Source of the DNA: Botryllus schlosseri
Taxonomy: Eukaryota
NCBI GenBank assembly: GCA_051294905.1
Contig: CM119372.1
Coordinates: 11,658,001-11,722,000, forward strand
Length of the DNA: 64,000 nucleotides
Reading direction: 5' to 3'
The notes beneath the pieces were generated by a model. It did not search any database. It worked only from the letters and a program-made list of their open reading frames with translations, and had not been told where the DNA came from. Shown one piece after another: positions 1 to 39,300 of this stretch (positions within the stretch are counted from its first letter, which is position 1; every line of letters starts with the position of its first letter). The translations under genes were made by a program, and so were the position numbers.

Positions 1-2564
1 CATCTGATTAGAGTGGTTGTCGCGGTCGGCCTGTGTTCCGTCACCGCCATATCCAGATGAATATCCGTCATATCTGTGAAATTTACGGTGCTGTATTACC
101 TATACTACATGAATCACGTGGTTCGTATTTGGACTATCATTTCATTTCTACTGCCGCAGTTTCCGAAGTCAAATAGCTTATTTGGTACTTTTACTTTTTT
201 AAATACTGCCAAGTTGAAAGGAGAATTTAAGTGGGTTTGCATTACTTTTATCCGGGACATCGTTCTAACCATCATAGTATAGCCCCTATAATCCCAGATC
301 ACCTGGCAAGGTTTCGCAATAATATACGCGCATCAACCCAGTTCAGTTTATAAATAATGTCATCATTTCAAATGACCACAATAATTTGATACAGCACTGC
401 AGGACCATTGTCCATTATTAGTCAGTCACAATGATGCATTAAATTATAAATTTCTCTGCAACGTGCCAATGTTTCGGACGAAAACATAACTTACTATGTT
501 TTCAATGTTTTTTATAACCGTTCATTTTCTATTTAAGTGAAGTTGTTTCGTCAATTTTTCATGTTTTGGAAATAATCACTGCATGTAACTAAATAGTATT
601 TTAGGGTTGTTTCTGCTTTAGCTTCGTCAAGTCTTGATTAGAAACCGATATAGGCAAAACGTCATGAAAATACACGCTACAGCCAGAATAATACATTCAA
701 AATTCAACCGCGGCTCTGAAAACTAGGTTATAGCCATTTAACCAGCTGCTCAAGTATTTCTATTCGATATTGCCTGTCCATATCAACAGTGGCGTAGCAG
801 CCACTTGGCGATTCTGGCTCTGCGCCAGGGGCGGCAAAATGAGGCTACACAGTGTACACGGCCGGCTAAAAGCAGCGTAATTGGCAGTACTATAGTTGGC
901 ATGCCGTGAGCTAAAATTGAATCAAACTGGTCTCAATCGAAAGCTAGTGTCGCGCTGATTCCGAATATGTTAACCAATTGAACCACTCCAAAATAGCCGT
1001 CAAGACCGATTGTTCCTAACATTCAGAGCGTTGCAACACGATGACCAATTGACCATGATAATGGAAATTATATCGATCGATTGTTCGGAACAATGCCGAT
1101 TTTCAGACCAGCATTTAAATTGTATTTCCGGAATCAGGGCAACGATAGCTTTCGATTAAGATCAGTATTGTTAAATTTGAGCGCTCGTAGGGTCTGGCCA
1201 ACTATAGGATGACCAATGACCAATGGTTGTTCAAAAAAAACTTTTTTTTCCAAATCTCACTCGCCTAATGACTAAATCGTCAGGTTGTCGAAGAATACGA
1301 TGCACACCAAATTTGACTCAATTCCAACGAGTAGAGGCCGTGCAATCTTGAATTGAATTTTTTAATTTATTATTAAAAATTAAAAAAAAATTTCAAATTT
1401 TTCTGTCAACCCCATGAAATTGTTGAGCTGTCTTCAAAGACGATGCAAAACAAATTTGAGTCAATTCCGACTAGTAGAAGCGGAGTTATTCGAGTTTTTC
1501 GTTGATAATTCTCGGATTATCCTTGATCCATTGACCATTGACCAATTATGCTGCTTGTAGATGTCTCAGCAGGAGGCTTGTCTGGGAATTCAAGTGTGAC
1601 AACTAAGTGCCTATTTGTCCGTAGGTTACTGATAAATGCTCTGGGTTACGAATTGGTACAGCAGACCGAGATAGCTGTGAAGGTAAACCGGTCGTAGGAA
1701 CTGTTCAAGTCGGTAATAATTGTCTGATTGACAGATTGTGCTTAAATTTATACAAATGTTAATTAAGACTCGAAAATGAAATACATTCGTTCGCTATTTC
1801 TTGTCTTCATTATTTTTGGCTGAGACGCGGCATATTATTTGTAGTAATTGTTATTGAAAAAATTGCTTGAACATGAATCTATGTCGAAATTTGCTGCGGT
1901 CTACTTAGAGGGGGGGGGGGGGCGGCATTTTAAGCGAGAGCCAGGGGCGGCAGCACTTGCTGCTACGCCAGTGCATATCAATCTAATCAATGTTTCTATA
2001 GTTGACGAACTTGTAAATTCGCAGCACGTCATCTTCAAATTAGCTGATACACAGATGTCATTCGGGTAGGGTTACCATACGTCCTCTTTTTTCAGGTTTT
2101 TGAATATGTCCTCCGATTACGCCTAAGCTCAGTGTCTTCCTTTTTGGCAATTCGTCCTCCTTTACAGCTTTTACTACTATGATAATGGAGAGATTCGAGT
2201 GAAAATGGGCACAAATGACGCTAAATAGGAAATTCGGGGTTCGATCCAAAGCGACGACGTTTTTTAGTCAACCCCACTAATTTTAAGTAAAACGTGTGTA
2301 AATCGGGAGTCGAACTAAAGAGACGAACTTTTTATAGTCAACCCACCAAATTTTACAGCAGAAAATAGAGAAAGCTGCTGTTTTCAGTTTTGATCAACTA
2401 ACTTTTCTGATTTGGTAAGTGTCCTCCTTTCCCGATTCCAAAATATGCTAACCCTACATTAGGGCAGCTAACATTGCATTGCATTGCCAAATCTCTTACC
2501 TGTCGTTGTTGGGGTTGCATTGGTTTGCGTGATTGTCATTATCTGCTTGTTGTTGTGGGTCCAT
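1..2564 (-). CDS. Micro-peptide gene copy A (DNHANQxNPNN-repeat peptide), 3' end runs off the window; exons 2564-2500 and 73-<1
   Basis: ATG at 2564, GTAAGA donor after 2500, TTTCACAG acceptor before 73. Spliced product MDPQQQADNDNHANQCNPNNDRYDGYSSGYGGDGTQADRDNHSNQM..., near-identical to copy C with the same exon-1 size (65 nt) and intron phase (2). Confidence 0.8.
787..1973. mobile_element. Non-autonomous hAT-type element (CAGTGGCGTAGCA termini) in intron 1 of peptide gene A
   Basis: TIR CAGTGGCGTAGCA ... TGCTACGCCAGTG; perfect 8-bp TSD CATATCAA on both sides. Confidence 0.8.
2067..2456. mobile_element. hAT-type MITE (TAGGGTTACCATA family)
   Basis: TIR TAGGGTTACCATA / TATGCTAACCCTA; TSD CATTCGGG/CATTAGGG; second family member at 35389-35821. 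Confidence 0.75.
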
Positions 2565-2669
2565 CGTAACCTCCTCGTGAAAAAAATGCTCAGTATTTCA
2601 GATCGCTAGCGTATCGATTCAACGTGAGTATCACATAGGCTATGCGGGACAAGCATCAGTTTGGACGCG

Positions 2670-2722
2670 TTTATATTCCTCCACAAATGTCAAGAGAGTG
2701 GTAGCGTGCAGGGTAATTCCCC
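2670..2722 (-). promoter_or_regulatory. Putative core promoter of peptide gene A: kB-like site GGGGAATTACC (2722-2712) and TATAAA (2675-2670)
   Basis: The kB-like site is identical at the homologous position upstream of copy C (10762-10772), and CATAAA (10818-10823) matches the TATA position. Confidence 0.5.
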
Positions 2723-2745
2723 GACATAGGAGACAACCGTTGCGG

Positions 2746-4925
2746 CATAGTGTCCTATATGGTGTCGACACAAGCAAATCGCACGGTTCAATGAAATTGT
2801 ATCACGTCACAGTTTCCATTTGGCTACAGGCAATTTGACGGTGATTTTTGACCGGCTTGCCGAGCATTAAATTTGATGAATCGGGTTTCAATCGAAAGCT
2901 GACTCTGCATTGATTACGAAAATATAAATTTTATTCCGCTCGCGGCCCTGGAACCCCCACAATCAGCCCCCAATTATTCATTGTCGAGTAGATTGGCAGT
3001 GTGACGCAACAAAGCTGTCTGGCGAAACGTGAGACTAGCTCAAGAGCAAGGATGCGGCCGAGCGGCGAGAGTGGGATCAGCTGACGTGACGGCAATAGCG
3101 ATGTGCAAACGCGCCACAGAGAAACGCTGCGCTGGTGATACTTTTTCTATGCGTTTCGGTACAACCGAGCACACACCAGCCTTTCCTTGACTTGTAAGGG
3201 TAGAACTGGGTCCACAGAATGTATTAGGGCCCTACCAATTTTCGCGCAATATCCCTCAGCTGATAAAGATATGTAGGCTACGTCTAAGTAGTCTACATTG
3301 GATATGTCAGATTATTATGATATCGATTGCCTTAGCCCGCTTGTTGCGTAGGGCTCCAGAGACACGTCGCGCTGTTGATGGCGGGTGTCGATACTTTCTA
3401 TAGTCGCTTTTATGGTTAAGTGTGAGCAAGGATCATTGACCATGAGCATACATTACAAGCTTTTATTTGATCCGTATGGGTAGGACTTGGTCCGCGAATG
3501 CAGCAGGTAAAATGTTGATTGTTGAATAAAGTTTAACAGCAGGAGTGTCGAATTAAACTGGTATCGCTGTCGCGATTCAATCCGTTACTAGAAAGCTTGC
3601 GGGCCATACCTGCCAAATGATTCCAAAATGTTACCACCAAATTCATACCTTTGTTTTTCACTGGAATATATCTGATATCACTATAAACGTTGACGTTGGA
3701 ATTTGGTTTAGCATTTTTCAATCACCAAATAGCGTTTTTGAATGCCGGGGACCTTTTGCGTCAAAAGTAATACAGTGGTATCGCAGATATTTGAATTATA
3801 TTCATCCTGTAGCCTGTATATATATTCCTAATGTAACTTACGTAAAACGGATTTGCAGTATTTTTTCGCATCTGTGAATAACTGAATTTCCATTGTCCAT
3901 TCGGCCCAACAGAGTTTGCACTTTTTCGCCTTCTCGGAATTTGGCAAGGTCACCGACGTGGTGCTTATGGGGACTAGAGTGAAAACTCAACACTGTAGTT
4001 GTATTACTACAATATGACGCGAAACAATAACTTCATATTGTTAATTTATTCGCTAAAAGCTTTTCGACTAACTCTCATCAGTAGCAATAATAACTACAAT
4101 ATGATATATTTACATTATCTAAATTTGCTGTCTTGAGTGAATCTTATTACTTGAAAGTATATTTTTCTTACTAGAAATATCTCTAACAGCTGAAGGATTG
4201 CGCGAAAATTGGTAGGGACCGCAAATACATTCTGTGGACCTAGTTCTACCATTACAAGTCAAGGAAAGGCTGGTTTGTGCTCGCTTTTAGCGAAGCGCAT
4301 AGAAAAAGTATCAACAGCCCTACGCAACAAGCGGGCTAAGGCAATCGATATCATAATAATCTGACATATCCAATGTAGACTACTTAGACGTAGCCTACAT
4401 ATCTTTATCAGCTGAAGGATATTGCGCGAAAATTGGTAGGGCCCTAATACATTCTGTGGACCCAGTTCTACCCTTACAAGTCAAGGAAAGGCTGGTGTGT
4501 GCTCGGTTGTACCGAAACGCATAGAAAAAGTATCACCAGCGCAGCGTTTCTCTGTGGCGCGTTTGCACATCGCTATTGCCGTCACGTCAGCTGATCCCAC
4601 TCTCGCCGCTCGGCCGCATCCTTGCTCTTGAGCTAGTCTCACGTTTCGCCAGACAGCTTTGTTGCGTCACACTGCCAATCTACTCGACAATGAATAATTG
4701 GGGGCTGATTGTGGGGGTTCCAGGGCCGCGAGCGGAATAAAATTTATATTTTCGTAATCAATGCAGAGTCAGCTTTCGATTGATACCCGATTCATCAAAT
4801 TTAATGCTCGGCAAGCCGGTCAAAAATCACCGTCAAATTGCCTGTAGCCAAATGGAAACTGTGACGTGATACAATTTCATTGAACCGTGCGATTTGCTTG
4901 TGTCGACACCATATAGGACACTATG
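2746..4925. mobile_element. Foldback DNA transposon with 610-bp TIRs, P/Galileo-like, non-autonomous
   Basis: Arms 2746-3355 and 4316-4925 are near-perfect inverted repeats (only two mismatches noticed), termini CATAG...CTATG, 7-bp TSD GTTGCGG (2739-2745, 4926-4932). The empty site matches the homologous upstream region of copy C. Confidence 0.85.
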
Positions 4926-5399
4926 GTTGCGGTCTCTAACCAATCAATGTCCTTGAGCCGTGACCAACTATATGTGGTTCTTGTTGGGTAAAGGCTACGA
5001 GGTGTTTCTATTGTCTGTCAGTATAGAGACTGTTACCGTCTCTATAATTTCAGGCTGTTATAGGCTACTACTTTTCCAATACCCATTTTTGAATTTGAAA
5101 CGTGACATCATCATTATTGACAATGACAATCTAGTACGTATATATATTCCCGCACGCACAGCTTTGGTATTCGCCATAGTTGAAATGGTACTGTGGTTTT
5201 CCACCACTGAACCATTGCGATCCCGTTTGATGGAAAATTACAACACGATTCCAATCCAATGTCCCGGTGAACCAATGCGCTTCCTAGCCGAGACACGTTA
5301 ACATTTATATCCAAATGTATATTCCACTCATCGCGATACAGTAATGTTACATTTGCAAGTTCATTTAATGAAAATTAAAACGACTGTACAGTGTACAAC

Positions 5400-5527
5400 T
5401 CTGCAGGTGTTCGTGCCTGACGACTAGCACTGATTTTGCTGGCCTCAAGTTGAGTTCTGGAAACACCAGGGATTGAATCTGTGATCTCGGGTATACGATC
5501 CAGCGGTGTGACCACTGAAATACTGCA
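5400..5527 (-). mobile_element. Degenerate tRNA-derived SINE head (same family as 9516)
   Basis: Reverse complement CAGTGGTCACACCGCTGGAT...GAGATCACAGATTCAATCCCTG resembles the 9516 element. Boundaries approximate. Confidence 0.5.
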
Positions 5528-6050
5528 TCCTACTATATAGCTGAATAACCTCACAGCAGTTTAACCGGGTTCACCATCTCTTCGCCAGGGTTTATAGGCC
5601 TACACACGGTGACATACAGAAATATATATTGTTTAGGACACCTATGGTTAATTGGTTAACCCAGTTCGATCCTAGGAATTATTCTCACCCCGCAATGTAA
5701 TGGCGTGAGTAACAAGCAATCTAGTCTGACTAAGCTCCGTTCAATAATTATAATAATTTGAGAATATATATGGAAACCTAGTCAGTTTCTACTGACGTAC
5801 CGCTTTTTCTGGAATGCCACATAATATTTTATCAACGAGAATTATAATTTCCAAAATTACTTTAAGCTGCTGGAGAGACTGGTGTACAAAATTGACGTCA
5901 GGTTACAAGATCAATATTGAATCTCATGCCGGATAGCACCATACTTAAACGTAGCAGACTTGCCATTTGCACATATGTGATAGCGACTTTACGGCGACAC
6001 TAGCAATCTAAAGCAGAGACGGATTTTTCAAGATACTAAAAGACGATACC

Positions 6051-7138
6051 ATGGATGCACAAAAGAAAGCGGCTAATGATAATCGCTCGAACCAAGACAA
6101 CCCTAACAACAAAAGGTAATAGATGCTATGATGCTATTTTATATGTACCATTGATATTGCTTTTACGACGGACAACAGTTCCTATATTGGACAGTTGCTG
6201 CTAATCTTCCAGTTGGCGAAATTCATTGCGCATGCTTATTGTTCGTAGATATGGTGGGCATACGCCTGGATATGGAGGTGACGGGACGCAGCCCGACCGC
6301 GATAACCATGCCAATCAAGGGAATCCAAATAACCCCAGGTATATGCAATTAGAACTATTATATAACGAAGGTATGGGAATTCTGCATACTATATGTCTTA
6401 ACACTTTGAAAATAGTATATAGGTCATGCCCGGGTCCATCGCCTTTGCATCCTAAGGCCGAAGTCCTGAATTGCCCCAACGTCACGAGGTGTTCGCTTGT
6501 ATCACGTCAAGACAATACGGCACGCGTTCTGAACCTTTGTAGAGTCATGGTACACTTTCAGATTATAAATATTTCTTGGTTCACTTCTTAATGTCATGCT
6601 CGAAATATAGAATGAATCTGTCGTTTTGAGTGGTAACAACTAAACATACATTTAATCTGAATATGACATACGTTCCTAGGATTACTCCAGTACTGTTGAG
6701 TTAGTTTCCGGTTATATTGCAATCGAATTTCATCCCTGATATCCTATTGATGAGCCTTTTTAGCTGTTATGATTACGACATACCGACAAAAGTATTTTAA
6801 TTTTTAATTCGACATATCACAGATTCTGACATTTCCCCCTGATAAAGGTCTGCGCGAAGTAGAGTAAAATATAATACTATATATGTTATTGATAGCATGA
6901 GAAGACGAATACAACAAAACGTTTCAGCAACTTCCTTATATTCCAAATAGCTCTATGATCCACGGATTAAGAACCACCGCTATGATCGACAATTAAACCA
7001 GCGGATATCGGGATGTCTCAGAATGCACCCCAGTATATTTTAGTTGGACCAATACTTATTTCAGATTGCAGCGTGGCATGGTACCGTTCGTTCGCTGATC
7101 ATTATTTATATATTTTTAGACATCAACCGAAGAAATGA
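6051..7138 (+). CDS. Micro-peptide gene copy B, 57 aa; exons 6051-6115, 6249-6338, 7120-7138
   Basis: Spliced product MDAQKKAANDNRSNQDNPNNKRYGGHTPGYGGDGTQPDRDNHANQGNPNNPRHQPKK*. GT-AG introns, both phase 2; exon sizes 65/90 equal copy C; AATAAA at 7227-7232. Exon 3 was chosen by analogy with copy C and is the least certain. Confidence 0.78.
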
Positions 7139-8168
7139 ATACGTGTGGCTGTTGGCGTAATGAGCGTTGGTGGATTGAACTGTGATAATTTGGGCATTTC
7201 TTAATTATATGGTTTATATATTTGTGAATAAAATCTTCGATTAACGTCTGTCCGTGGCGCGGGAACATACTTGGTACTGTGGGCCGCATGGATTTTGGAT
7301 TGCATACTATTTTAGGCGGGTCAACTGTAAAAATAATCGAGTTTGAAATACCGAAATAACTAAAGTTGTATTATATCCAACAACGGTGGTAACTCTTATC
7401 GAAGTGACCGATATAGTCCTTTTCCTTGGAGCTGTCTACTGTAAATATTTGGAATTATTATGACGGAGACGGAGTTCTTTTTCTTTGCTACAATCTGACC
7501 TTCACAAGATAATACTTACTTAAAAAAACAGAACAGTGCATAACGCTAATTTCCAGGCGTTTTCCGGAAATTAGTATAGAACGGGAGGCTAATGGCATAA
7601 TATATTACTCTAGTAACCGGATCTATTATAGAGATTTGGAAGCCACTCCTATACCCACCGATAACGAATGAATGGATTTGTTAGCAAAGTAATTAACCAT
7701 ACGCAATCGTATAATTTCAAAAGTTCCGTGCAGCATGTTTGAAAATATCCGAATAGCTGCCGCTTCGCACGGCTTGCGTGTAACGAGATTTGATTCACTA
7801 GCAACGAGTCCTATTGGTCGAAATTGGAATATACTATCGGTACATATTTACCTACTACATACGGCATTAGAGTTCGATCATTCGCACGTTTAATAATTTC
7901 ACCATTTCGAAGCATTCTATATCCTATACCATCCACATCCTAACATCCTACACTATATGCAAAGAGAGGAAGGCGTCGGAGAGACTTATCTAAATAAAGA
8001 AAGAGTTGCTCACCTCTGCCAACAATAGCAATAAAAAAACGTTGCAGAATCGCATAAATGTGCATACCGAGAAAGAAGTATCAAATTAGTAACTTATAAA
8101 ATAGATTCTATCTCTCACTGGTACCGCGCAGTTGGACGACGATGAAACTCGGGCATTGCACTGGTTAA

Positions 8169-9178
8169 TAGGGATGGTGTGAACCTCTGAAAGGTTCAGG
8201 TTCGTGTGAACGCGAGCCACTTTGAAAGGTTCTGCGCGAACCCGAACGTGAATCTCATGACGTCACGTGACGTCGTATTGCTAATTCCGACCCTACATTT
8301 CAGTGAAGTCATAGCCTATATTAATATACTTGTACACGGTACCCAGCGATGACTCGGGCCACATAATGTGACAATACTGAAGTATATAATGACGTTTTAA
8401 ACGTCGCTAAGTGTATCAACTGGGCCAATCAAATGATATAATAATCCCATAAAATCAATATCTTCCGTCGCTTTGCCAACAACTTCGACGAGGACTTGCC
8501 AGGGAATATGAGGTTACGCTGGGTTACGCCCTAAAAGTCTAGGCCAGACCAGACAATGCATTCGGCGCCTAAGTATTGCTACGTTGATATGGAGCAGAGT
8601 ATAAAACGGTTTGTATACTTGCTACCGATACTATACGCCATTAGCAAGCTATACAGCAGTAGCCAACACCCCAATCGCACGGATTTGGTTTCTATGATAC
8701 AATAAACATATGAAATCAAGATTGACCACGTACGCCTGCTAGATTTTTTACATCAGACAACGAGATCAATTCTTTCATTGGTTGAATAAGCATCATTCGC
8801 TGACTATAACAACATGTAGTGTATTTCGTTCTTGATGTTGTGTGATTGGGGGTAAAGCTCACAGCAGAGGGTCAAAAAATATTCGAGCAAGCCTTTGTAA
8901 TAAAGCAAGTAAAATTTTTGAGATTGTCAAGGTGCACGATTGTTCATGTTCAGTGTTGATTTTTTATGCTGCCAGCGCCATGCATATAGTGGCCTGCAAT
9001 TGAAATGCAATAAATTTCAAGCAAAGATGCTATGATGAAGTGAAAATTGTAGTATATGAAAAACGTTCACAGTGCAGAACCTACCAAGGTTCGTCTGTGA
9101 AAGTGAACCTCTAAATTTCTGAGGTTCACACTTCACACACTGAACGCGAACGTAAACCTCATGTTCACACCATCCCTA
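8169..9178 (+). mobile_element. hAT-type MITE, TAGGGATGGTGTGAAC family (copy 1 of 5)
   Basis: TIR TAGGGATGGTGTGAAC / GTTCACACCATCCCTA; degenerate TSD CTGGTTAA/CTGGTCAG; internal homology to the four other copies. Confidence 0.85.
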
Positions 9179-9515
9179 CTGGTCAGGTCAAGATATCGAA
9201 GCGAAGCATTAATTAAACATATTTCACCGAAATTATAATTAAAAATTTCGGCGAGAATCCGAAGGAAGGATAAATTTTCTCTCCAATGTTAGTCGAACAA
9301 TACACAAGAAATCATTGGAACAACTACATTTCCAGTATCGAAATGGATAACCCCATTAACCACAGATATCCTAAGTTAGGACCTGTATATTGAATATTTC
9401 TGTATTATTAGGACTCCTATCAATATCTGCCTGCCCCTGTATATATAAGCCATGGAAGAGATGAATACTGCCAAACAGCCGAAGTGGTGATTTAGATGCC
9501 ATAATGTAGGACCCA

Positions 9516-9780
9516 GCAACAGTGGCGCAGTGGTTACACCGCTGGATAGCCCACCAGAAATCACAGGTTCGATTCCTGCAGGCTGTTCCAAGCGAGCAAC
9601 ACCGGTGGCAACCGCAAGGCCGGATAAGTGGGCAGGCTCGTGTAAGAAAGAGCATAAGAGATGGAACTGGAGCTAAATCATAATGCGGCAAACTGAGCAC
9701 TGCGTCGATGCCTTCGGAGATCCCACACGCGCAGGAATTATTGTAGGATAGATACGCTACTTTGCATTCTTCCATTCTCA
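9516..9780 (+). mobile_element. tRNA-derived SINE
   Basis: Pol III A box TGGCGCAGTGG and B box GGTTCGATTCC, followed by non-tRNA body; related copy at about 5400-5527. 3' end approximate. Confidence 0.6.
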
Positions 9781-10623
9781 GCGCACGGTAATTCTCGCAT
9801 TCTTGGCATGATTTTTCAAATTGCGTATCAGATCCAACAAGATCAGTCTCTATAATCGAATAAGGCATATGGTTGTTCTGCATAGTCAAAAGCAAATCAT
9901 TAGACCTGTAGTTCCCAATCACTCATCGCCCCCTTATCAAGCCCGACACAGATTTTCACCCACCCCCCTATATTTATGGACCCGAAAAAGAGGACCTATA
10001 GACGGGAAATTTATACACTTTACTCTGATCCCTGGTGAATTGACTGTAACAAGGTCATTTTCCGAGTAGGTGTAGAGTTTTCCGAGAAGAAAATCGGGTT
10101 CCGCTTCTACTTTTCCTTGAGTTGACCTTTTTTATGCGTCATATGCAGAATAATCCGTCTTCACGTGCATTTTTAGTCGTGTTAATTAAATATATCTCAT
10201 TCGACGTTCTAACATTTTAGCCCCCCTGCCATGTCGCCTTGTTGGTATTTTAGCCCTCTTTCTCAAAATTGCCCATGTTGGGAACGACCGTACTAGACTA
10301 TGAAGCGCTGGAGGACATGTAGAGCTGTATATTTTCAATGCAGTGTATACAAAACCATTTTGGTTTCATGAAATAAATTTGAAATTATCCTGATTAGTGA
10401 CATTAAAAGTTCGGTATCGATGTCAACGTATCCAGGAAACCAATATCTTCATTGGAATATTGGAATCGAGCCGTAATTTTCCATCAACCGAACCCATGCA
10501 CAGAGTGCCGGGATCGCATCGTTCATGAATATCCCAGTCCGTACGGGCCTACAAAACATACACCTACTCGATTGTCAAAATGCTGATCTTAAATTATAAA
10601 ATCAATATTGGATACTCGGTAAC

Positions 10624-10823
10624 GGGGAAGTACCAGACGCGACACAATAAGGCAGCATTTTGGATAAATAATGGCCATATACACATAGCCTTGCCCAAAG
10701 TCAACCATGGTTAGTCAAGAATGTCGATGGGTTCGAAATCGCAACGGTTGTCCGCTATGTCGGGGAATTACCGTGCACGATTCTTCCTTCTTCGCTCTCG
10801 TGACTGTGACAGCTACACATAAA
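10624..10823 (+). promoter_or_regulatory. Putative promoter of peptide gene C: kB-like sites GGGGAAGTACC (10624-10634) and GGGGAATTACC (10762-10772), TATA-like CATAAA (10818-10823)
   Basis: From about 10715 onward it is alignable with the upstream region of copy A; the 10762 site is identical in both. Confidence 0.5.
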
Positions 10824-10905
10824 CTCGTCCAACCTATTGCTTCTCTGCACATGTGATAGTAACGTCGAATCGATACGCAAGCTGTTCGAAATACTGAGAA
10901 ATCAT

Positions 10906-11866
10906 TAGGGATTGTGTGAACCTCTGAAAGGTTCGGGTTCGTGTGAACGCGAACCTTTTTGAAAGGTTCTGTGTGAACACGAACGTGAACCTCGTGACGT
11001 CATATTGCTAATTCCAACCCTATCTTTCAATGAAGTGATAGCCTATGATACCTAGCGAAGACTCGGGCCACATAATGTCACATTGCTGAAGTACATATTG
11101 GCGTTTTAAACGTCGCTAAATGTATCAACCGCGGTTATGAAGGCATATAATAATCTCATAAAATCAATACATTCCGTCGCTTTGCCAACAATTTCGACGA
11201 GGACTTACTAGGGAATATAAGCTTATGCCTTAACGGTCTTTGACAGACCGGACAATATGTTCGGAGTCTGGGTATTGCTACATTGATATTGAGCAGAGTG
11301 TAAAACGGGTTTCTATACTCGCTACCGATACCATAAACAACAAGTTATAGCCAGCACCTTAATCGCACGGATTTGGTTTTAATGATACAGTAAGGATATG
11401 AAGTCAAGATTGACCCAGTACGCCCGCTCGATTTTTTACATCAGAAAACGATATCAATGTCATTGATTGGTTGAATAAGCATCATTCGCTGACTACGTAT
11501 ATCGCTCGTGATGTTGTGTGGTTGCGGGTTAAGCTCACAGCAGAGAGTCACTAAATATTCACAAACGGAAAGCTGGATATTTCGAGAAATTTTTGCAACA
11601 AAAAAGCAAGTAAAACTTTTAATGTTGTCAAGGTGCATGCTCGTTTAGTGTTGATTTTTTATGCTGCCAGCGTCATGCAGAGAGTGACCCGTAGTTGAAA
11701 TGCAATATATTTTAACCAAAGATCTTATAGTGAAGTCCAAATTACTATTTACCAAAAAGGTTCACAGTGCAGAACCTACCAAGGTTCTGTTGTGAACGCG
11801 AACCTCTAAATTTCCGAGGTTCACACACAGAACGCGAACGTGAACCTCGCGTTCACACCATCCCTA
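10906..11866 (+). mobile_element. hAT-type MITE, TAGGGATGGTGTGAAC family (copy 2), inserted between the putative promoter and ATG of peptide gene C
   Basis: TIRs present; perfect 8-bp TSD GAAATCAT (10898-10905, 11867-11874). Confidence 0.9.
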
Positions 11867-11899
11867 GAAATCATTTGAAGTTTTCACGAGGACGATACG

Positions 11900-12820
11900 A
11901 TGGACCCACAGCAACAAGCAGATAATGACAATCACGCAAACCAATGCAACCCCAACAACGACAGGTAAGAGATGTTGTGATGTCATCAGCCCCAATGACA
12001 TCTGTGAATCAGCAATTCGAAGATAAAGTGCCGATCATAATCCATCAAGTAGCAACAATTGTAATCATTATATTAACACGGAAGAGCAAGATCGAAAATA
12101 ATACTTCAGCCTATCAGCTTTCGACATGGTTATGAGGTTGTGTACTGTTGTGCAGTCTAGGAATTTATAAGGTATTTGACCCTGACTATATGTGTATAAT
12201 ACTGTGTATAGAGATCACGTTTTGCCGCTACCAGTTGCTAGTCAGGGATGTTGAATCTGACGTAGAAAGAACATTATTAAATGCCAGTCAACCTGCACTG
12301 CCACTATCAGCGCGAGGAAAACAACTAGCCTACACTTAAATGGAAAATGAAAAGTATTAAGGGCGCTGAAAAATAGGAAATTATGTGTCCATCCGAACCA
12401 TCTCGGACCGTCGTTGCCTGCAGAGACATTTGGAATTGGATGCATTATTGCTATGGCATTAATGTATAATGATACTGCAGTGCTATATCGTTTACTCACT
12501 ATTACACCTTTACGAATAGCCCAATTCTTTCACAGATATGACGGATATACGTCTGGATATGGCGGTGATGGAACACAAGCCGATCTCGACAACCACGCTA
12601 ATCAAATGAATCCAAATAACTCCAGGTATATAGAATTAGGACTATTGTCATATATTACATATTAAGCTAACGATCCAAGTCTAAGTTTTTCGTAAAATAA
12701 TTCTAAAAACTGTAATATCGCCTAGTTGTAGTAGAAATAGCAGTAGCCTATATCAAAAAATATGATATAGATATCTTGGTTTACTGCCCATTGTAATTCT
12801 TTTTCAGATACCAAGGATAA
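11900..12820 (+). CDS. Micro-peptide gene copy C, 55 aa; exons 11900-11964, 12536-12625, 12808-12820
   Basis: Spliced product MDPQQQADNDNHANQCNPNNDRYDGYTSGYGGDGTQADLDNHANQMNPNNSRYQG*. Donors GTAAGA and GTATAT, acceptors TTTCACAG and TTTTCAG, AATAAA at 12897-12902. Confidence 0.82.
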
Positions 12821-13921
12821 ATAAGATGCATGACATGTCGACGTATTGATCGTTTAGCAGTAACAATTTTGGGTTTTCATTTATTGCAAGTTGGCGAATA
12901 AAAACTGCGCTTATTGTTCTCCTGCTATTTACCTCTTACTCTGCGTCAGGTTACTACAGCTGCGAGTTTTACCATGCGTTGGACAGGCGAAAGGCAGTCG
13001 TTCCGTCGGCGGGAAGTTGTGGATAAGTCAAAAGTTTCAAATTTGCCATACATAAGCAGGATAATTACTTCATTGGCTGTGACCGCATTGCTAACGCGGT
13101 TTCTAACACCCATGCCAATGCTTTCCGTTTCAAGGTTTGCAACCTTGTTATAGCCGCGGACCACTTTCCGGTTTGAAAATATCCCGTCGTCCACCTTTCC
13201 AAGTTGTGTTGGAACTAGGGTTGCATTTGAAACCAATGGCTGTTTAAAGCACTTTGTTTAAAACAAATTGTGTTTTTTAAAAGTTTTATAATTGTGCCAT
13301 AAATGGCCCCGCTCTTTCTCTTCATCTACCTTGTCCGAATAATAGCCGAGGCAGTTACAGCTTTCCAGAGAAAAAATGTCGGGCAAATCTAATCATAACA
13401 GCAAACAAATTTGTATAATACAAGTTCGGCACATTTTCATCATCAAGCCTTATCATCGTAACCGCTTTTCTCCGACTCGTTTTTGGCTGATGGCTAATAC
13501 CTAGTACCCAACACAATGAACTTGGACATGTATTAACATAACATATTCACAGTGGAACGCTATAAGCGCGAATAAATTTGTGCGTTGCAAGAAATTCAAA
13601 AAATATTACATGAATGTTAAATGATCGCTTTATAGTGCGGTCGAGACTCAAATTTATACCCGGGTCGAGAGGTTTTTTTTAAAGTATTGGTCGCAAAGGG
13701 TACAATCGTAGCATACTAATGTTTAAAATGCATCCTTTTTGATGTGTGAGGCTTGGGTCGCGTGATGCCACTAAAACCATTGTTTCTGTCTGAAAGCATT
13801 TGCCACTCACCGAAAATACGGTGTATTTTGGATAGAAGTGTTTGATGATTCTTAAAGAGACCTGGTAATCCAAGCACTAGAAGTTCTTGTACAAAACCCA
13901 ACAACTTACTTGACCGTAAAG

Positions 13922-23048: not shown

Positions 23049-24735
23049 AATTTATGGGTCGAAAAGAGCTAGAGAACCACTGGATTCAAGTTCATCGAAA
23101 ACTCAGATATTCTGTTCTACAACAACCCAGGTTTCATCATTATAGATTATTTCATTAATAATATTTGATCTGGTACTGTTGTACGCTCACCGTAATGTCA
23201 CTAACGAAATCCGAAACTTGATTAATTTATGAAAATGAGAAAAATACATACCGAAAAAATCTGACATGATAGAGAAAATCTGGGCACAGAATCGGATTCA
23301 ACAGCCTAATATTAACCTAAATCAATCATTGAAAATTCTGGGGCAAAATATTTTTGAAATTTGTTGACCAGTGTAATTTTATGGGTCGAAAAGAGCTTCC
23401 AATAGAACGAAGATAGAGAATCTCTGGATTCAAGTTCACCGAAAACAATATTTACTACAACAACCCAGCTTTCATGATAGATGATTTCAATAACACTATT
23501 TGATCTATTGCTATAGTAATAGGGATGGTGTGAACGTGAGGTTCACGTTCGCGTTCTGTGTGTGAACCTCGGAAATTTATAAGTTCGTGTTTACAACAGA
23601 ACCTTGGTAGGTTCTGCACTGTGAACCTTTTTGGTAAATTGTAATTTTCACTTCATTATAAGATCTTTGTTTCAAATTTATTGCATTTCAACTGCGGGTC
23701 ACTCTATGCATGGCGCTGGCAGCATAAAAAATCAACACTAAATGAGAATGCACCTTGACAACCTTAAAACTTTTTCTTGCTTTTTTGTTACAAAAATTTT
23801 CTCGAAATATCCAGCTTTCCGTTTGTGAATATTTAGTGATTTTCTGCTGTGAGCTTGACCCGCAATCACACAACATCACAAGCGATATTCGTAGTCAGCG
23901 AATGATGCTTATTCAACCAATCAATGACATTGATATCGTTTTCTAATGTAAAAAATCGAGCGGGCGTACGGGGTCAATCTTGATTTCATCATATTTCACT
24001 CATATCTTTACTGTATCATTGAAACCGAATCCGTGCGATTAAGGTGTTGGCTACCGCTGAATAACTTGTTGTTTGTGGTATCGGTAGCGAGCATAGAAAC
24101 CCGTTTTACACTCTGCTCAATATCAATGTAGCAATACTCAGACTCCGAACACATTGTCCGGTCTGGCTAGACCGTTAAGGCGTAGGCTTATATTCCCTGA
24201 TAAGGCCTCGTCGAAATTGTTGGCAAAGCGACGGAATGTATTGATTTTATGATTACCGATTATTGATTACCGCGGTTGATAGATTTGGCGACGTTTAGAA
24301 TGCCAATATGTACTTCAACATTGTAGCATTATGTGGCCCGAGTCTTCGCTAGGTATCGTGTACACTGTATACTGTACTGTACATTAATATAGGCTATCAC
24401 GTCATTGAAAGATAGGGTTGGATTTAGCAATATGACGTCACGTGACGTCACGAGGTTCACGTTCGTGTTCACACAGAACCTTTCAAAAAGGTTCGCGTTC
24501 ACACGAACCTGAACCTTTCAGAGGTCCACACCATCCCTATATAGTATGCTTATCTTGATTTCACTAACGAAAGCCGAAATTTCATTAATGTATGAAAATG
24601 ATAAAAAGGCATACGGAAAAAATCTGACGTGAAAGACAAATTCTGAGCACAGAATCGGATTCCTTAGATTAGCCAGCTGAATCAATCATTAAAATTTTTG
24701 ACCCAATTTTTTTTTTCGAAATTTGTGGACAAGTG
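23049..24735 (+). repeat. Local tandem duplication of about 330 bp; second unit interrupted by a MITE
   Basis: TTTATGGGTCGAAAAGAGCT...CTACAACAACCCAG...CACTAACGAAA...CACAGAATCGGATTC occurs at 23049-23375 and again at 23376-23519 plus 24540-24735. Confidence 0.7.
23520..24539 (-). mobile_element. hAT-type MITE, TAGGGATGGTGTGAAC family (copy 3, inverted)
   Basis: TIRs present; TSD TATAGTAA/TATAGTAT; reverse-complement match to 10906-11866. Confidence 0.88.
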
Positions 24736-29481: not shown

Positions 29482-30308
29482 CTACAAGTGAGTTAAACGG
29501 TTATTCATGTAAACATCGTTCATCTGCATTCGCGGGCTGCTCGATTTAGACCTGGAAAAGTCAAGGGGCGTGCGTTCCACACGCCTCTCAAACCTAGCCG
29601 GTCCGCAGTGGCCGGGCGCGAAAGAACCGGCGAAAACGTCCGCGGGCGGGTGGCCGTGACCCGCAAAATGCCGCGCCCGTTCCTGAAACTCCCCTGGCGA
29701 GCGCTGCACGCAGTCGGACAGCGATTCGAGAGGGTTGTGAAACTGCCCGTAGCGTCCGGTGTTAAAGTTAGACGCGGCCGCCAGTTCTTTTGCCCTATCG
29801 TACACCGAAGAGAAATTCCCATGAGCGGGCGCGCGAGGCGCTGTAATTTGCGCGGCGTTACCTTGCGGCTTGCGCGCCGCGAGGTCGTCGATTTGATTTT
29901 GAAACGCAGGGAAACCGTTGCCGTGAAAGAGAGAGTCATAACCGCTCGGGCGTGACGCGACGCGCATCAACGCTTGCGTTTGCGCTCGCGCTGTTTTCTC
30001 TCGCAGCAGGCCAGCATCGTCTTCGACTGGAGTCTGATGAGGAGATATGCTGCTGGGCATGTAACCGCCCCGAGTGGACTGTCCCATGTTTTGCGCTTCG
30101 TTGCCGCTGCTGGAAGCTGAGCGCGCGCCAATGTCGGGAGTGAAGTTCGAGGACTGTCCGTTGCCCGGCGACAGCGTCCCGTTTGACGAGACGGATGACG
30201 GGGATGTGAGGCGGCCTTTGTGGGTGGGCCCAGGGTAGCTTTTCGGCATGGATTCGAATGAGTTTGGGGCACCGTGTGGCATCATATGCGTGTTCGGCAA
30301 GCCGGTGT
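29482..30308 (-). CDS. Hox3: Hox3 last coding exon
   Basis: Acceptor TTACTTTCAG before 30308 (phase 1); GC-rich open frame ending NNRLTHL-TAG, matching the KLTHL terminus of vertebrate Hox3 proteins. Confidence 0.9.
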
Positions 30309-33300
30309 CTGAAAGTAACGGAAGGGACATAAGCGTACGTGGTCAAAGTGTTAATGGTTTGCAATCAAGTCGAAGTGGAAGAAAAGGCGTAAATTTCAGC
30401 TCAAGGACAAGTAGAAGTAGCGATTTCCAAGCAAGTATAAAGTAAGTGTTATAGCCCTAGTTTTGCGTACAAAAATTTAAAACGGTCAAATAGAAGTATA
30501 AGCAACGTAAATTTCTACTGAGGTACAAGTAGGAGTAGGGATTTCTCAGTAAGTAAAAAGTATCTGATCTAGGCCTAGTTTTTGAAAATTGTGAATCAGA
30601 AGAAGTCGACAAACATCACCACTTGAGTAAGTAGTGCAAGTGGGGAAAAACTCCTTGAGTATTCGGAAAAAGTAGAAGTACCACAGGACCTAAGGCACAT
30701 AAAAGGTTTCATCTATGCGGTGGCGGCATCAAAACAAAATGGTACCGGTCGGGCGAATAAATTCTCATTACGATACCAACGGCGGTCTCAATAGCGGACG
30801 TTCAGGTCCTTCGCATTCACCTATGTTATCACAAAGAGAATATCGAATGTAGGCACAATGATTCTTCGACTATAATCGAGTATTGATTTCGGCGATTTGA
30901 CTCGAGAACTATACGAGTCGATTTTTCGAGTACTGAATTAATACGCTCTTATGCGACTAAGAATTGTTTACCGAAGTAGAATTATCTTGTCGATATTTCC
31001 TTCACATCACAACACTCAATAATGCGGTAAAGGGATACGTATATGTTTGTGGCGACAATCGCCTGAAGTATTGGCCCACCCTTGGCGTTGTCACAGTGTG
31101 GCATGTCACATTTATGGTACAAAAGCGCGCAATTATATCATGTGAAGTTCAACTGACAATATTCATTTGTGGAACAATGAAAGGTACATAATTATTAGGA
31201 TATTTCGTCCTTGACACCATGATGAGTGATAGTTATAGACTCGCCTCCAAGCTTAATAGTCGATATGCAATATCGATGGGTTCGCATCCCCGGATACTCG
31301 ATTTCGACGAGCCCTAATCGAATGGTACCTGCACTGGATTTTTTGGATAATGAGTAGTTAACGGGCGTTTCAAGTTCTTGTGGTTCACACGCGCGCTTCA
31401 AATTCTTGTGGTTCACATCACATCCACGAACATAACACGTTCCTCGGTGACGTCAAATTGGAGTGATGATATCGATTCAAGTCGCGACTCAAATTGAGAT
31501 CCGACCTGACAGGCTACACCTACTCATCGCCGAGATCATGCGATTTACGCAGAGCCAAAATCTGTTGGTCCAATATCGCTCCTATAGGTTAAGTACCATG
31601 CAAGAGACCAGATGAAAACTAAGAGATGGCGCGATCTCCTTTCATTGCACAGATTTAATCTATAGGTACACCGACAGAAGCCGTGTTTTGAAATGAGAAT
31701 TTCCGACATCGACAAACACACGTTCCGAAACAGTATAGGATCGCAACCGGCATGGTTCACTTCGTGACTTCAGCATAACATCAGATCAAACGCAGGTGCT
31801 GAGTGACACTAGGTAACGGAATATAGAAATTCATTCACACCGAGAGTTCAACCGCCGGTCAGTTCCAGGAATGTAAAGAAGCATCGGATACTTTTGAAAA
31901 CACTGACTCATTTCAACAACACGTCCATTGATACGATCTGCCATTCATGGCCGGGTGATCGGCTTACCTTGACTGACGTGTGACCCATGCTGCCGGTGCG
32001 AGTGGTAGCAACGGGATCCCGAAGAGCATCCCGGGGTCGAACCGGGACCTTCCGTCGGCAGCGGCCTGTAAGATCCGTCTGCAGGTAGGAATGGCGGATA
32101 TTAGCAATCCGAAAATGTGGAAACATAAATAGGCCTATTCGCGATATGGTGTTGAAACGCAGCGAGTGCTAGCAGGTATTTTATAGGTGAATAGCGCTCG
32201 CAACGTATTGACGAGACCTTCATTGTTGCGGTCTAGTATATGTTGAATGCCTTTGTCATCAAGTGTGACGAAACCAGGCATGGATTCATGCATGAGACAC
32301 TCTTTTTTCTAGAAACGAACGGGACAAAAAGTGGGGCGTACCAGTTCCATGAAGCCGATTTTGGTTAACAGCGAGCTCCGGTATGTTGACAGTATGAGGA
32401 GATACAAGAACGGCTTCGATCTCCCAAACGCACAATGTATACGAAAATAATATATTTTCCCGGTTTACACCATAGCGTAGGATGCAAGTCAGGCAAACTG
32501 CATTTTCTGGTACATAAATGTGGCTGTAACAACCATTACAATAGGTAACAACGAGTGAAATACAATTCCCTATGGTGTTTGGAATATGATTGTATGATAC
32601 ACGTAACAACCCATATATCTCCATAAGAACAGGTGCTTTTAACTCGTTTGAAGCCATTGGAACAGGTGTCAAAGCAATATTCGGTAGCAGAAAGCGCCAA
32701 CTGCTTGATTTCCGCCCCGATCTTTCGTGGAAATCTGGTAAAACACCTATTTCCCACCATACTATTTACAGTTTATGACTTTGGATCAAATACAGATCAA
32801 GTAGTGAATAAAAAATTCCAAACTGTAACCCCATTCGCCCTTACCTACCTTATAGTGTTGCTTGTTGACTGACACAGAACTATCATGACGGCCCCTTCAA
32901 ATTCAAATACTATGTATTCGCATGTATCCATTAATATCTAAAACTTTAGATATCCCTGGCATGTATCGCGTACTTTCTATAGGGAGCTCGACCAATGACA
33001 CCACGCTGTGAGGGTACGCCACAGGAGAAGTTTGGAGTGGGCCACAGAGCTATTTGGAAAATTGTAGAATTAGTGAAAGTTTAGTTATATTTGTTATGTT
33101 ACTCGATCAAAAATATATTCATATTATCGAATCACACGTAGGATACATAAATGTGATGAGACGTAGGGGCACTATGGCGTCATGGCCGGGGGACAAAAGA
33201 CGCCGTTTTTTTCCTCGGTCATGATAACCTACGGCTAACCTAACAGCAATGAAAACAATTTCGATTATATAATAACTGTAAGTTAATGCTGAAATAACCA

Positions 33301-36300: not shown

Positions 36301-39300
36301 TTTTAGAGAAAAAGGCATATAGGCGGTGATTACCACGCACTGAAGAGGACTATGACTCTAGGATAAGATGTGGGCCACAGAACATTTTCAAATCGGAAAA
36401 TGGTCCACGGCCAAAAAAACGTTGAGAACCCCTGTCTTAGATGCTATGGCATTGCATCGTAATACGCCGAGGCGCTGAAACAATGACCCAAGCAAATTTG
36501 TGAGCCTTTATCTCAATTCACACCAAAAAGCTCGAGACTCACTGCAAATAAAAGTCACAAAATAAAGACACGAAGAGGGCAATGGAAATACGAATATAAT
36601 CCCATACCTCCAGGATGAAAATGACCTCCGCCAACATAATGCCGGTGGTCGTTATTCCTTGATATCAACGGGTCCGTTGCCATGTTCGGATTGTGATGAT
36701 GCTGGTGGAAAAAGCCATCGTCCCTCGCCATGGGCACTACCTTCAGTTTCTGATCCTTCTTGTATTTCATTCTGCGATTCTGAAACCATATCTTGATTTG
36801 CCTGTGAAAGTATTTTCAGGACGTTTTAGAATATCACGGATAGCTCGCATCGAGATCAGAAATATTTCAAAATGACTATTAATAGGGTTGCATTTAAAAC
36901 AAAAATCAATTTAAAACAAACATGTTTAAAACAAGGCCCTAATTTAAAACTTGTTTTTAATTGTTTTTCATGTTGTTATTTTTTAAATCCATGACGTCAC
37001 GAATATTCAATTGTGACGACATAGTGGATTGACATTGACAATTGACAATATAGGGTAAAAATAGCTCCTTTTGATGAAATATATGTACTATTGCTGTTGA
37101 ACAGACTATTTTGAGGGTTGCAACCATCCCATATCGATATACGTCGGCTATATCGGGTGGTAATTGCCCATAGGCTCGTACTACATGTTTTTTGTAAAGT
37201 ATTTACACAATTATGACATAATTTTACCACTTACAAAAACAATTTTTTTTATTAAAGGCCTTTTTTTAAAACACTGTTTAAAATATGTTTTGAACAAAGT
37301 GTTTTGAAACACTGTTTGTTTTAAATGCAACCCTAACTAGTAACATGATAGAAGGGTGGAAAACGCTGGATTGGTGACTATCAGAATAGAATTGAGAGAT
37401 CCGTTTATTCAGATTTCAGAATAATAAACTCTCTTGTCATACATAGGATGACTAAAATAAACGTACGAAACGTTTCGCGCCTACGTCCAAGGAGAGGTAC
37501 CCTAATAATGCCCGATTGAATCGTGTCGAAATTTGGTTGAATGTAAAATTACGTAGAATTGATTTCTGTCAGAGAGTGTGAAAAAACGTGGGCCATAGTA
37601 TCGCAGTGAAGTAAACCGTTTCGATATGACCAATTTCGCACGCAAATCTGATTCATATGCTACCCCTACCATCCATTCGGAAACTGGCACGTAAACTTTG
37701 AAGTAACATCGTAATATCAAATCGTTTATACGAATGCATAAAAAATTATTTTGCAAAAACGCACCATCGAAAGAACCCCCTTATTGGCATAGTGACTTTT
37801 TCCGCCGCGAGGACTATCAGCTTGAATGTTGATGGTAAACTTGAAAATATTCTTTCATGTATACTGTATACATAGTAGGGGAGATGTGGTACCGATGGAT
37901 CAAAAATTGGAAAATGATCGCTGTCCCCGAAATGTTCAGCCGAAAACAGCAGATCTTTTGCCGGCTCAGCACTTCGATACAAGCTCTACCTATCGCTCAC
38001 ATCTACATGAATATCCGTCTTTTCAAAAAATATTTATGGACGTTCAAAATTTGTTGCTCGAACGTGTCATCGGTCCCCACCCGGTGGGTTCAATGGCACA
38101 CGACCCCGGGACCTATGACACAGATACCCTAAAAAACTCAAATGTGACTACTTTTCTTGCTCAGTATTATAATCCAAGCTACAGCAAGCCAAAGAAGAAT
38201 GTTTGGTCGCAACTGTCTAAAAATAGAATAAATATTACCTCAAATGTTGTCATAAAATCACGTTTCGATTTAGGCTCGGACTTATAAATTTGAGGGTACA
38301 TACATATTACCCGAAAATCGACAGTGTGACTTCCAAATACCTCGTTATGGCGATAAAACATCATATGCAATTATTACATAAAGATTTTCTGTACGTAGGC
38401 ATGTTTCATTTGTTTCATAATTAGTATGCTTGATTACTTTGCTTGATTTGGCTATTGTATCATCGGTCCCCACCCTACGAATTTTATACATGAATCGAAA
38501 AAGTCTACTCAAGGAAAGTACTGAAAAAATAATAATAGGTGCCATTATATAGCCTGATACAAGCCCTACCCTTCACAATAAAAATGATTGCTGGTTTGCT
38601 CGTGTTGAAGGTTACAAATAAAAATGTATATGTCGATCTAAATTTAGTTTACCCCCCCCCCCCAAAAAAAAAATCATCTGTGAGAGACCCCATAGCTCGC
38701 GTACGTCGAATTTTTTTTGTATGTGAGGAAAGATTTTGCCAGCACGCAATTGTAGACAAGTTCACGGAGTGTAATCATGGAATTATCATAGAGAATTTTC
38801 AAAGTATTTTCGGTCCCAGTGATCCATCGGTACCACATCTCCCCTACATATACTCCAATTCGGGTCACCCGTGGCATTGTAACGACCGTGGGCGTAGCCT
38901 CCGCGGTCGCGTACGGTTGGACACACGTGGAATTTTTTTGAAAACGGGGCGTTTTGAGAATAGGGAGCCAAGCTCGGCAGTTCGCATTGAAGGTTATAGG
39001 CCATTATTTAAGATACATTTTCTTATGAACACATCACACGGACGTACACATGTTACAAGAAATCAAAATGTCCCATAGCGACAATGAGATTTATATATGT
39101 GGTGTCCCTTCTCAAGTTTAAGAAAATTGTTCAAAAAATTGTGATACAACGCCGAAGATCTTCACCTGTTCAGTTTTTCCAAAATAAATTACAATCTCAG
39201 CAGTCTTTTCATTTTTATTTAGAAATACGAAACTATACATGTCACCTACCGGGTTTTATCGGCGGCGCACTACAGATGAGGGGTCGTGTGCCAAACCGCG

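Follow-up and report, generated by a model that had tools for sequence, protein, structure and literature searches.

Three putative spliced micro-genes beside a Botryllus schlosseri Hox gene and their place in a cross-domain NPNN-repeat family

What kind of protein is encoded by three small spliced genes, each specifying fewer than 60 residues, that stand beside a Hox gene in Botryllus schlosseri? The genes, here called A, B and C, lie in a stretch of 64,000 nucleotides (nt) of GenBank assembly GCA_051294905.1 (contig CM119372.1, positions 11,658,001 to 11,722,000 of the forward strand), which is referred to below as the window and belongs to contig C2 in our genome searches. Each of their products carries two copies of a 16-residue unit, D-x-D-N-H-[AS]-N-Q-x-N-P-N-N-x-x-Y/R. 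Spliced micro-proteins of fewer than 60 amino acids (aa) are commonly overlooked by annotation, and here there are three. The answer that we favour is that A, B and C are very probably real coding genes of a family that reaches into bacteria and archaea, and that their products may act as cytosolic, largely disordered proteins of the hydrophilin type.

The gene structures are those of a preliminary description made from the sequence alone, and all of its coordinates, together with the 65-nt first exons, 90-nt second exons, phase-2 GT-AG introns and AATAAA signals that it names, agree with our own reading. Gene A, on the reverse strand, begins at an ATG at 2564. Its 65-nt first coding exon (2500..2564) encodes the first motif, NDNHANQCNPNN, and ends at the donor gacag/gtaagaga; intron 1 (74..2499; phase 2, GT-AG) contains dispersed-repeat fragments and runs to the acceptor cacag/atatg, and the 90-nt exon 2 occupies positions 1..73 of the window, with its last 17 nt beyond the window start. 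The remainder of gene A, namely the end of exon 2, a short intron 2, a tiny exon 3 and an AATAAA, was found in the flanking sequence (locus L004), and this 3' end resembles that of gene C. Gene B, on the forward strand, begins at an ATG at 6051, with a 65-nt first coding exon (6051..6115) that encodes the first motif, NDNRSNQDNPNN, a 90-nt exon 2 (6249..6338) for the Gly/Tyr linker and second motif, and a third exon whose coding part (7120..7138) completes an Arg codon and adds HQPKK before the stop codon; an AATAAA follows at 7227-7232. Gene C, also on the forward strand, begins at an ATG at 11900 and comprises a 65-nt first coding exon (11900..11964), a 90-nt exon 2 (12536..12625), a third coding part (12808..12820) that completes an Arg codon and adds YQG before the stop codon, and an AATAAA at 12897-12902.

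All six splice junctions within the window are GT-AG and in phase 2; exons 1 and 2 each end two bases into a codon, and the exon 1 donor reads AG/GT. The products, recomputed from these exons, have 56 (A), 57 (B) and 55 (C) residues, as in the 55-57 aa first given for them. In a six-frame scan of the window the motif occurs in frame five times, always in exons of A, B or C, and a sixth copy is truncated at the edge of the window. The core unit of the family is present in every one of the six copies in the three genes, and in each peptide the two motifs stand 30 residues apart with a Gly/Tyr linker between them. Rfam and tRNA scans of window bases 1-13500 gave no match.

The pattern of substitution among the three genes argues for coding function. 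Over the first two exons, Nei-Gojobori counts give ratios of nonsynonymous to synonymous substitution (dN/dS) of 0.16 for A-B, 0.08 for A-C and 0.13 for B-C, in line with the purifying selection proposed in the preliminary description. Genes A and C differ by 7 synonymous and 3 nonsynonymous changes over both exons and by 6 and 3 over exon 2 alone, so that a single synonymous change separates their first exons, exactly as had been noted. In a self-comparison, A and C are 97% identical over 93 nt (exon 1 plus 19 nt of leader) and 90% identical over exon 2, and their likeness is otherwise limited to a few short flanking stretches. The splice junctions are crossed collinearly by relatives of other organisms with uninterrupted reading frames; residues 4-22 of one such relative, P0044, correspond to exon 1 and residues 20-49 to exon 2. 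The spliced tail of gene B (Arg followed by HQPKK) likewise matches the usual C-terminus of the family, R/K-Y/F-Q-x-P-K-K.

Could the exons nevertheless be transposon sequence? A high-copy interspersed repeat of 961 nt with sharp ends (10906-11866) lies 33 nt upstream of the gene C start codon. It stops 14 nt before the 93-nt exon-1 segment of that gene, and sits between exon 1 and an upstream stretch that gene C (10740-10898) has in common with gene A (2589-2744). A first look at the genome gave 5384 candidate places for this repeat, most of the 40 that were scored being full length and 93-99% identical. The whole genome contains just three copies of the 93-nt exon-1 segment, whereas the adjoining element is high-copy; the exons are therefore not transposon sequence, a possibility that had been named at the outset as one that would undo the case and that these copy counts rule out, and the 961-nt repeat is not part of the gene family. 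No processed, intronless copy of the genes was found in the genome. That the three genes are non-functional, as chance open reading frames, transposon fragments or dead copies, was already disfavoured and seems to us highly improbable: the young repeat just upstream of gene C and a related copy on contig C16 that lacks an ATG could be taken that way, but they are outweighed by the low dN/dS, the three-fold occurrence of the exon-1 segment, the end of the repeat before the exon, the intact splice sites and frames, and thousands of homologues that include transcript-derived ones. From selection, copy counts and homology together, we conclude that A, B and C are very probably real coding genes of this NPNN-repeat family.

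Two features of the surrounding repeats may be recorded here. Further copies of the 961-nt element lie in the window at 8168-9178, 23520-24540, 54281-55021, 57600-58121 and 59055-59439. Separately, a 610-nt inverted repeat (2746-3355 and 4316-4925), 99.7% identical, with arms 960 nt apart and 144-nt repeats inside, begins directly upstream of the shared promoter-side segment of gene A, and may be either a foldback element or an assembly artefact.

How large is the family in this species? When the exon-2 peptide was compared with the whole genome in six frames (495 Mb, 219 contigs), six places matched, with E values from 1e-13 to 7e-6, well past what chance would produce: three in the window, one on contig C16 and two on contig C10, 1 kb apart. 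The three paralogues of the preliminary description are thus a local cluster of a family with at least five loci. The C10 gene (L005/L006) has an ATG-containing exon 1 and two copies of exon 2, each preceded by intron-1-like sequence; since exon 2 is present twice, this gene has three motifs, the product of a tandem duplication of the symmetric phase 2-2 exon. The C16 copy (L002) keeps only the 3' part of exon 1, the 5' part being replaced by short tandem repeats, and may be a pseudogene. Between the window genes and the C10 and C16 copies the synonymous sites are saturated (proportion of synonymous differences 0.66-0.91) and the proportion of nonsynonymous differences is only 0.08-0.18. The C10 and C16 copies differ from each other mainly in the linker.

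Beyond Botryllus, the family proves to be very widespread. A profile built from six exon-2 peptides, run against 1.84 billion cluster representatives, matched 264 of them at E<=1e-3 and 67 at E<=1e-10, most being proteins of 45-140 aa with two matched stretches. A second profile, from 20 full-length matches, recovered 2713 proteins at E<=1e-3 among 7200 candidates, and 64 longer proteins at E<=1e-5. Members come from a sponge (Geodia), molluscs, an annelid, insects, a springtail, a rotifer, dinoflagellates and Euglena, and include proteins of Mercenaria, Mytilus, Mactra, Plakobranchus, Lamellibrachia, Gryllus, Nylanderia, Exocentrus, Allacma, Rotaria and Prorocentrum, a Symbiodinium-type record, and transcripts of Biecheleria and Euglena. 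One 64-aa member found on 25 contigs (of at most 818 bp) labelled Enterobacteriaceae is likely to be contamination.

The architecture of these proteins is regular. Among the 246 best matches, whose median length is 76 aa, 182 have two motifs, 130 of them with a spacing of exactly 30 residues; the first repeat reads NQC in 110/182 and the second NQL or NQM in 156/182. Genes A and C fit both the spacing and the NQC-then-NQL/NQM pattern exactly and so are canonical members, their architecture following the family statistics. Gene B keeps the 30-residue spacing but reads NQD and NQG, and is a divergent, basic member. The window peptides, at 55-57 aa, fit the range of about 50-90 aa that is usual in the family.

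Is this, then, a known family under another name? At cut-off no Pfam or NCBIfam family matched the window peptides or the relatives scanned with them (13 of eukaryote type, 10 prokaryotic), in agreement with the first reading, which could assign them to no named family, and none of the curated small stress families (LEA groups, KGG, CsbD, CON-6) matched in these scans. PHROGs and PADLOC gave no match at threshold, with one sub-threshold row in PHROGs; a sequence search of the PDB returned only a chance nanobody row (E 0.45), and a Foldseek comparison of the P0029 model with the PDB gave 0 matches. Nothing relevant to the motif strings or member accessions was found in the full-text literature, a search that leaves aside subscription journals and supplementary tables. 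In their source records the members are "hypothetical", "uncharacterized" or bear likely misnomers such as "DNA polymerase beta"; in the ESM Atlas, three unnamed or misnamed clusters at 0.85-0.86 serve as leads only, the automatic label "alpha-amylase" being another likely misnomer. Because the library, PDB and full-text searches were all negative, the family may be described as present in databases and undescribed in the searchable literature. It is not the hidden, local family first supposed, since thousands of unnamed members from different domains of life lie in public collections.

The occurrence of DNHANQxNPNN-like strings in invertebrate and bacterial proteins, mentioned in the preliminary description, has been verified by the profile searches and by a pattern scan of prokaryotes. 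With one genome for each of 185,579 species, the DxDNHANQxNPNN core was found in at least 601 pattern stretches in bacteria and archaea, of which at least 350 were confirmed by tblastn. Carriers include Dehalococcoidia, Flavobacterium, Chryseobacterium, Christensenellaceae, Treponema, Vibrio, Ruegeria, Roseovarius, Massilia, Poribacteria and one archaeon of the Methanomethylophilaceae. The reading frames were read at the best 80 of these confirmed loci, which include complete chromosomes and cultured isolates. Two forms emerge: a short form of 27-90 aa, in which one or two units precede D-A-Y-W-x-S-R-G and an acidic P-D-D-W-E tail, and a membrane-anchored long form of about 140-210 aa with three units in most cases. 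The 16-residue core is nearly unchanged between animal and bacterium: exon 2 of gene C and a Dehalococcoidia reading frame (L011) have 15 identical consecutive residues, QADLDNHANQMNPNN. When the eukaryote-derived profile was applied to five prokaryotic carrier genomes, all five matched, with per-genome E values from 3.5e-9 to 2.1e-6 and one locus each. In viral contigs 29 of 68 pattern matches were confirmed, which places the core unit in a few phages and is too few for the family to be called phage-borne, and the plasmid collection holds 1 record.

The genes adjoining the bacterial members were analysed at the same 80 loci by Pfam searches on 146 open reading frames and by clustering, eight frames of at most 86 aa being left out. 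The recurring neighbours are a MatE-like protein (7 loci), a TPR protein (5 loci) and an unnamed protein of 380-425 aa (4 loci), and these represent lineage-level synteny only. In three bacteria distant from one another (L011, L059 and L058) the small gene comes after dapA, dapB or a homoserine dehydrogenase gene, within about 60 nt and on the same strand; this linkage was considered and set aside, as three loci are too few. At two loci, L032 (2835-2987) and L072 (2757-2897), a second small reading frame lies directly upstream of the NPNN gene and has a related yet distinct motif, N-K-G-T-x-G-T-N ... Q-G-N-R-G-K-Q-L-N-P-N, which hints at a wider QLNPN super-group of micro-proteins.

What do the sequences suggest about structure? 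Position-wise conservation over 430 units, numbered from Q as 0, shows N(-4), Q(0), N(+2), P(+3) and N(+4) to be 95-100% conserved, H(-3) 84%, D(-7), L(-6) and D(-5) 74-78%, and Y or F at (+8) 85%. Two AlphaFold2 models, of P0029 (20 sequences; predicted local distance difference test score, pLDDT, 74; predicted template modelling score, pTM, 0.37) and of P0044 (122 sequences; pLDDT 66, pTM 0.39), put residues -8 to +1 of every unit in a helix that leads into an NPNN turn. The segment D-x-D-N-H-A-N-Q is thus predicted to form a short amphipathic helix that N-P-N-N caps by a turn, and the spacing of L(-6), A(-2) and C/L/M(+1) predicts a thin apolar stripe, opposite to which the invariant D, N, H and Q side chains would make up a polar face. 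The prediction for a two-copy P0044 complex, with a score of 0.02, is uninformative either way.

The composition of the peptides is equally distinctive. Asparagine makes up 19-21% of residues in A, B and C, and there is neither a signal peptide nor a hydrophobic segment; the maximum hydropathy over nine residues is below 0 in A and C, as expected from the earlier observation that signal peptide and hydrophobic core are lacking. As quoted in PMC11277543, hydrophilins are defined by a glycine content above 6% and a hydrophilicity index above 1; the window peptides, with 10.7-12.3% Gly and a grand average of hydropathy (GRAVY) of -1.90 to -2.32, lie on the hydrophilin side of both values. It is this combination of Asn/Gly composition, hydrophilin-like values, absence of a hydrophobic segment and predicted helix-cap units that leads us to favour a hydrophilin-type protein.

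The mechanism that we envisage is a simple one. The peptide would be a cytosolic, largely disordered protein whose two helix-cap units together form a bivalent polar binding surface, the candidate targets being water-stressed macromolecules or else one small polar ligand or ion; the number of repeats would be set by duplication of the symmetric phase 2-2 exon. Taken as a whole, with the hydrophilin mode of action included, this is the best explanation that we can offer, and a plausible one, somewhat short of being probable. Action as a hydrophilin under stress, considered by itself, is put forward more tentatively.

Several observations weigh against this explanation. That N, Q, N, P and N stay invariant from one domain of life to another seems to suit a specific binding or structural site better than bulk replacement of water. 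Overall charge is not conserved, A and C being acidic (isoelectric points 4.1-4.3), B basic (9.6) and the bacterial tails strongly acidic. Carriage in bacteria is sporadic, with 6 of 201 sampled genomes of one class positive, and no shared partner or stress operon appears in the bacterial neighbourhoods at the 80 loci. Confidence in the models is modest, at pTM 0.37-0.39, and a tertiary fold is unsupported. Within Botryllus, the recent C10 and C16 copies give dN/dS of 1.3-3.0, on few changes, the C16 copy is without an in-frame start codon, and gene C, with a young repeat so close to its start, may be silenced. The strict invariance of the core also keeps alive two rival readings, in which the module binds an ion or a partner.

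In the first of these, the conserved D, D, N, H, N and Q on one helix face would coordinate a divalent cation, clamped by two repeats or by two single-repeat chains, and the protein would buffer or chaperone metal. The candidate ligands D(-7), D(-5), N(-4), H(-3), N(-1) and Q(0) are 74-100% conserved, and in 110 of 182 two-motif proteins the His of the first repeat is followed, four positions on, by a Cys, the second repeat having Met there in 48 of 182. In dinoflagellates, moreover, the repeat is fused to PLAC8 (P0141; 35.3 bits against a cut-off of 34.4), a family linked to the handling of Cd and Zn. Each repeat, however, offers a single His, and Asn and Gln bind transition metals only weakly. 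Leu follows Q in 108 of 182 second repeats and in most bacterial forms, as suits a hydrophobic stripe more than a ligand for metal. Other fusions point elsewhere: the repeat is joined to a Hint autoprocessing domain in one marine metagenomic protein (131 bits), and precomputed domain annotations add tetraspanin, PAN, H-NS and a LuxR-type helix-turn-helix domain. Nor do metal-homeostasis genes recur beside the bacterial genes. We consider a metal-binding role unlikely on this evidence, and the fusions as such do not settle function.

The same fusions, to unrelated domains and to membrane anchors, suit a second reading, according to which the motif docks onto one conserved partner, either protein or nucleic acid, and the protein is a small regulator or adaptor that folds on binding. 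Such a role would agree with a motif that is near-invariant from bacteria and archaea to eukaryotes, amid freely varying linkers and tails, and with models that show isolated helices and no core. Against it, nothing recurs at the 80 bacterial loci beyond lineage-level synteny, and the sporadic distribution noted above would be odd for a regulator of a universal machine. We therefore regard docking, too, as rather improbable.

Much less probable still is an exported peptide with an immune, antimicrobial or signalling role. The tandem duplication and the rapid change of the linker in recent copies might suggest one, as might the N-terminal membrane anchor or signal-like segment seen in L008, L019, L023 and P0154, or the metagenomic Hint fusion, Hint domains occurring usually in secreted proteins. 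Against this, the window peptides have no hydrophobic segment, a hydrophobic run of seven or more residues occurs in just 17 of 246 relatives, A and C are acidic, and the part that is conserved is the motif, not the variable part. The inducible immune effector considered in the preliminary description is not supported. Its loosely HET-s-like, self-assembling two-repeat module is a scarcely credible alternative, with nothing in its favour beyond two repeats, a Gly-rich loop and an Asn/Gln-rich composition, since the models give short helices and not strands, Pro is invariant within each repeat and no Pfam prion domain matches at E up to 10.

A further observation concerns Hint domains in this genome. 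Contig C6, between 19.8 and 29.7 Mb (L087-L091), has at least five reading frames with a Hint domain. They stay open for 231-246 codons and share 34-42% identity with the Hint region of P0074, and no NPNN exon is linked to any of them in the genome.

A broader proposal than the hydrophilin-type reading can also be made. DxDNHANQxNPNN could be an ancient, self-contained helix-cap module that binds one specific polar ligand or ion in bacteria, archaea, phages and eukaryotes, used either free or tethered, with valency set in animals by duplication of the symmetric 90-nt exon. We offer this as a possibility, and a somewhat doubtful one. If it is true, the unit would be a micro-domain of wide distribution that has so far gone unrecognised and that serves a single biochemical function, and its tethered uses would be those with membranes or with Hint, PLAC8, tetraspanin or DNA-binding domains. 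A definable biochemical role is in any case to be expected, because the family is so widespread and so constrained. The interest of these genes lies in the depth of conservation of the 16-residue unit and in the ease with which it could be tested directly, the peptides being of synthesizable size. A curated family model would in addition clear misnomers such as "alpha-amylase" and "DNA polymerase beta" and permit systematic annotation.

Two other features of the window deserve mention. The Hox gene (36741-45010, reverse strand) consists of a long open exon and a split homeodomain. The exon, of 538 codons (43394-45010), ends in the hexapeptide IYPWMK, and an intron of about 3.2 kb splits the homeodomain (39975-40139 and 36741-36800) between Pfam positions 42 and 43; the ending looks like that of paralogue group 3. 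The long exon has one relative only in the protein collection, at 45% identity. Also on the reverse strand, a Ser/Pro/Gly-rich open frame of 286 codons (29482-30342) lies in the most GC-rich stretch of the window (0.457); Pfam gives no match for this frame, which may belong to a neighbouring gene as one of its exons.

How do the window genes compare with known systems? One named family recurs below threshold. PF22698, the dimerisation domain of ArgC-type semialdehyde dehydrogenases, is the only recurring sub-threshold row; its best relative scores 21.4 bits (E 2.4e-4) against a cut-off of 27, over 29 of 165 profile positions (29-57), and it is flagged in the precomputed annotation of three further members. 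In some eukaryotic members the linker together with the motif locally resembles G-x-S-G-x-G-x-K-A...N...Y. The window's own peptides and the bacterial members show nothing of the kind, and the likeness is probably one between Gly-rich loops. With the HET-s prion-forming domain the window peptides have in common two short repeats and a flexible, Gly-containing loop, but their family differs in its helical models, in an invariant Pro in each repeat and in lacking a family match. Secreted Gly/Tyr-rich antimicrobial peptides of the nematode NLP/CNC type have an N-terminal signal peptide, in contrast to the window peptides.

There is also a likeness to hydrophilins. These include LEA proteins, yeast proteins of the Sip18/Hsp12 type and the bacterial YciG/KGG-repeat and CsbD proteins. 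Like the window family, they are small, Gly-rich and highly hydrophilic, are built from a short repeated unit, lack a signal peptide, are predicted to be disordered with short helices, and occur in both bacteria and eukaryotes. The window family differs in being rich in Asn and not in Lys, Glu or Ala, and in having a motif that is far more invariant than is the norm for the class.

Close, too, are the unnamed database relatives, among them Nylanderia ADE27969.1, Mercenaria LOC123563437, the Geodia barretti proteins GBAR_LOCUS7781, 12893 and 29778, the multi-repeat proteins of Mytilus coruscus and the small bacterial reading frames in L011, L031 and L038. The window genes resemble the eukaryotic ones in their two repeats, 30-residue spacing, NQC followed by NQL or NQM, and basic tail. 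Many of these relatives are encoded by a single uninterrupted reading frame, whereas in the window genes each repeat ends at a phase-2 intron; the bacterial forms often have a single repeat and, in place of the Gly/Tyr linker, the D-A-Y-W-x-S-R-G ... P-D-D-W-E acidic tail. By composition, then, the window genes belong with the hydrophilin class, and by sequence they belong to an uncurated family.

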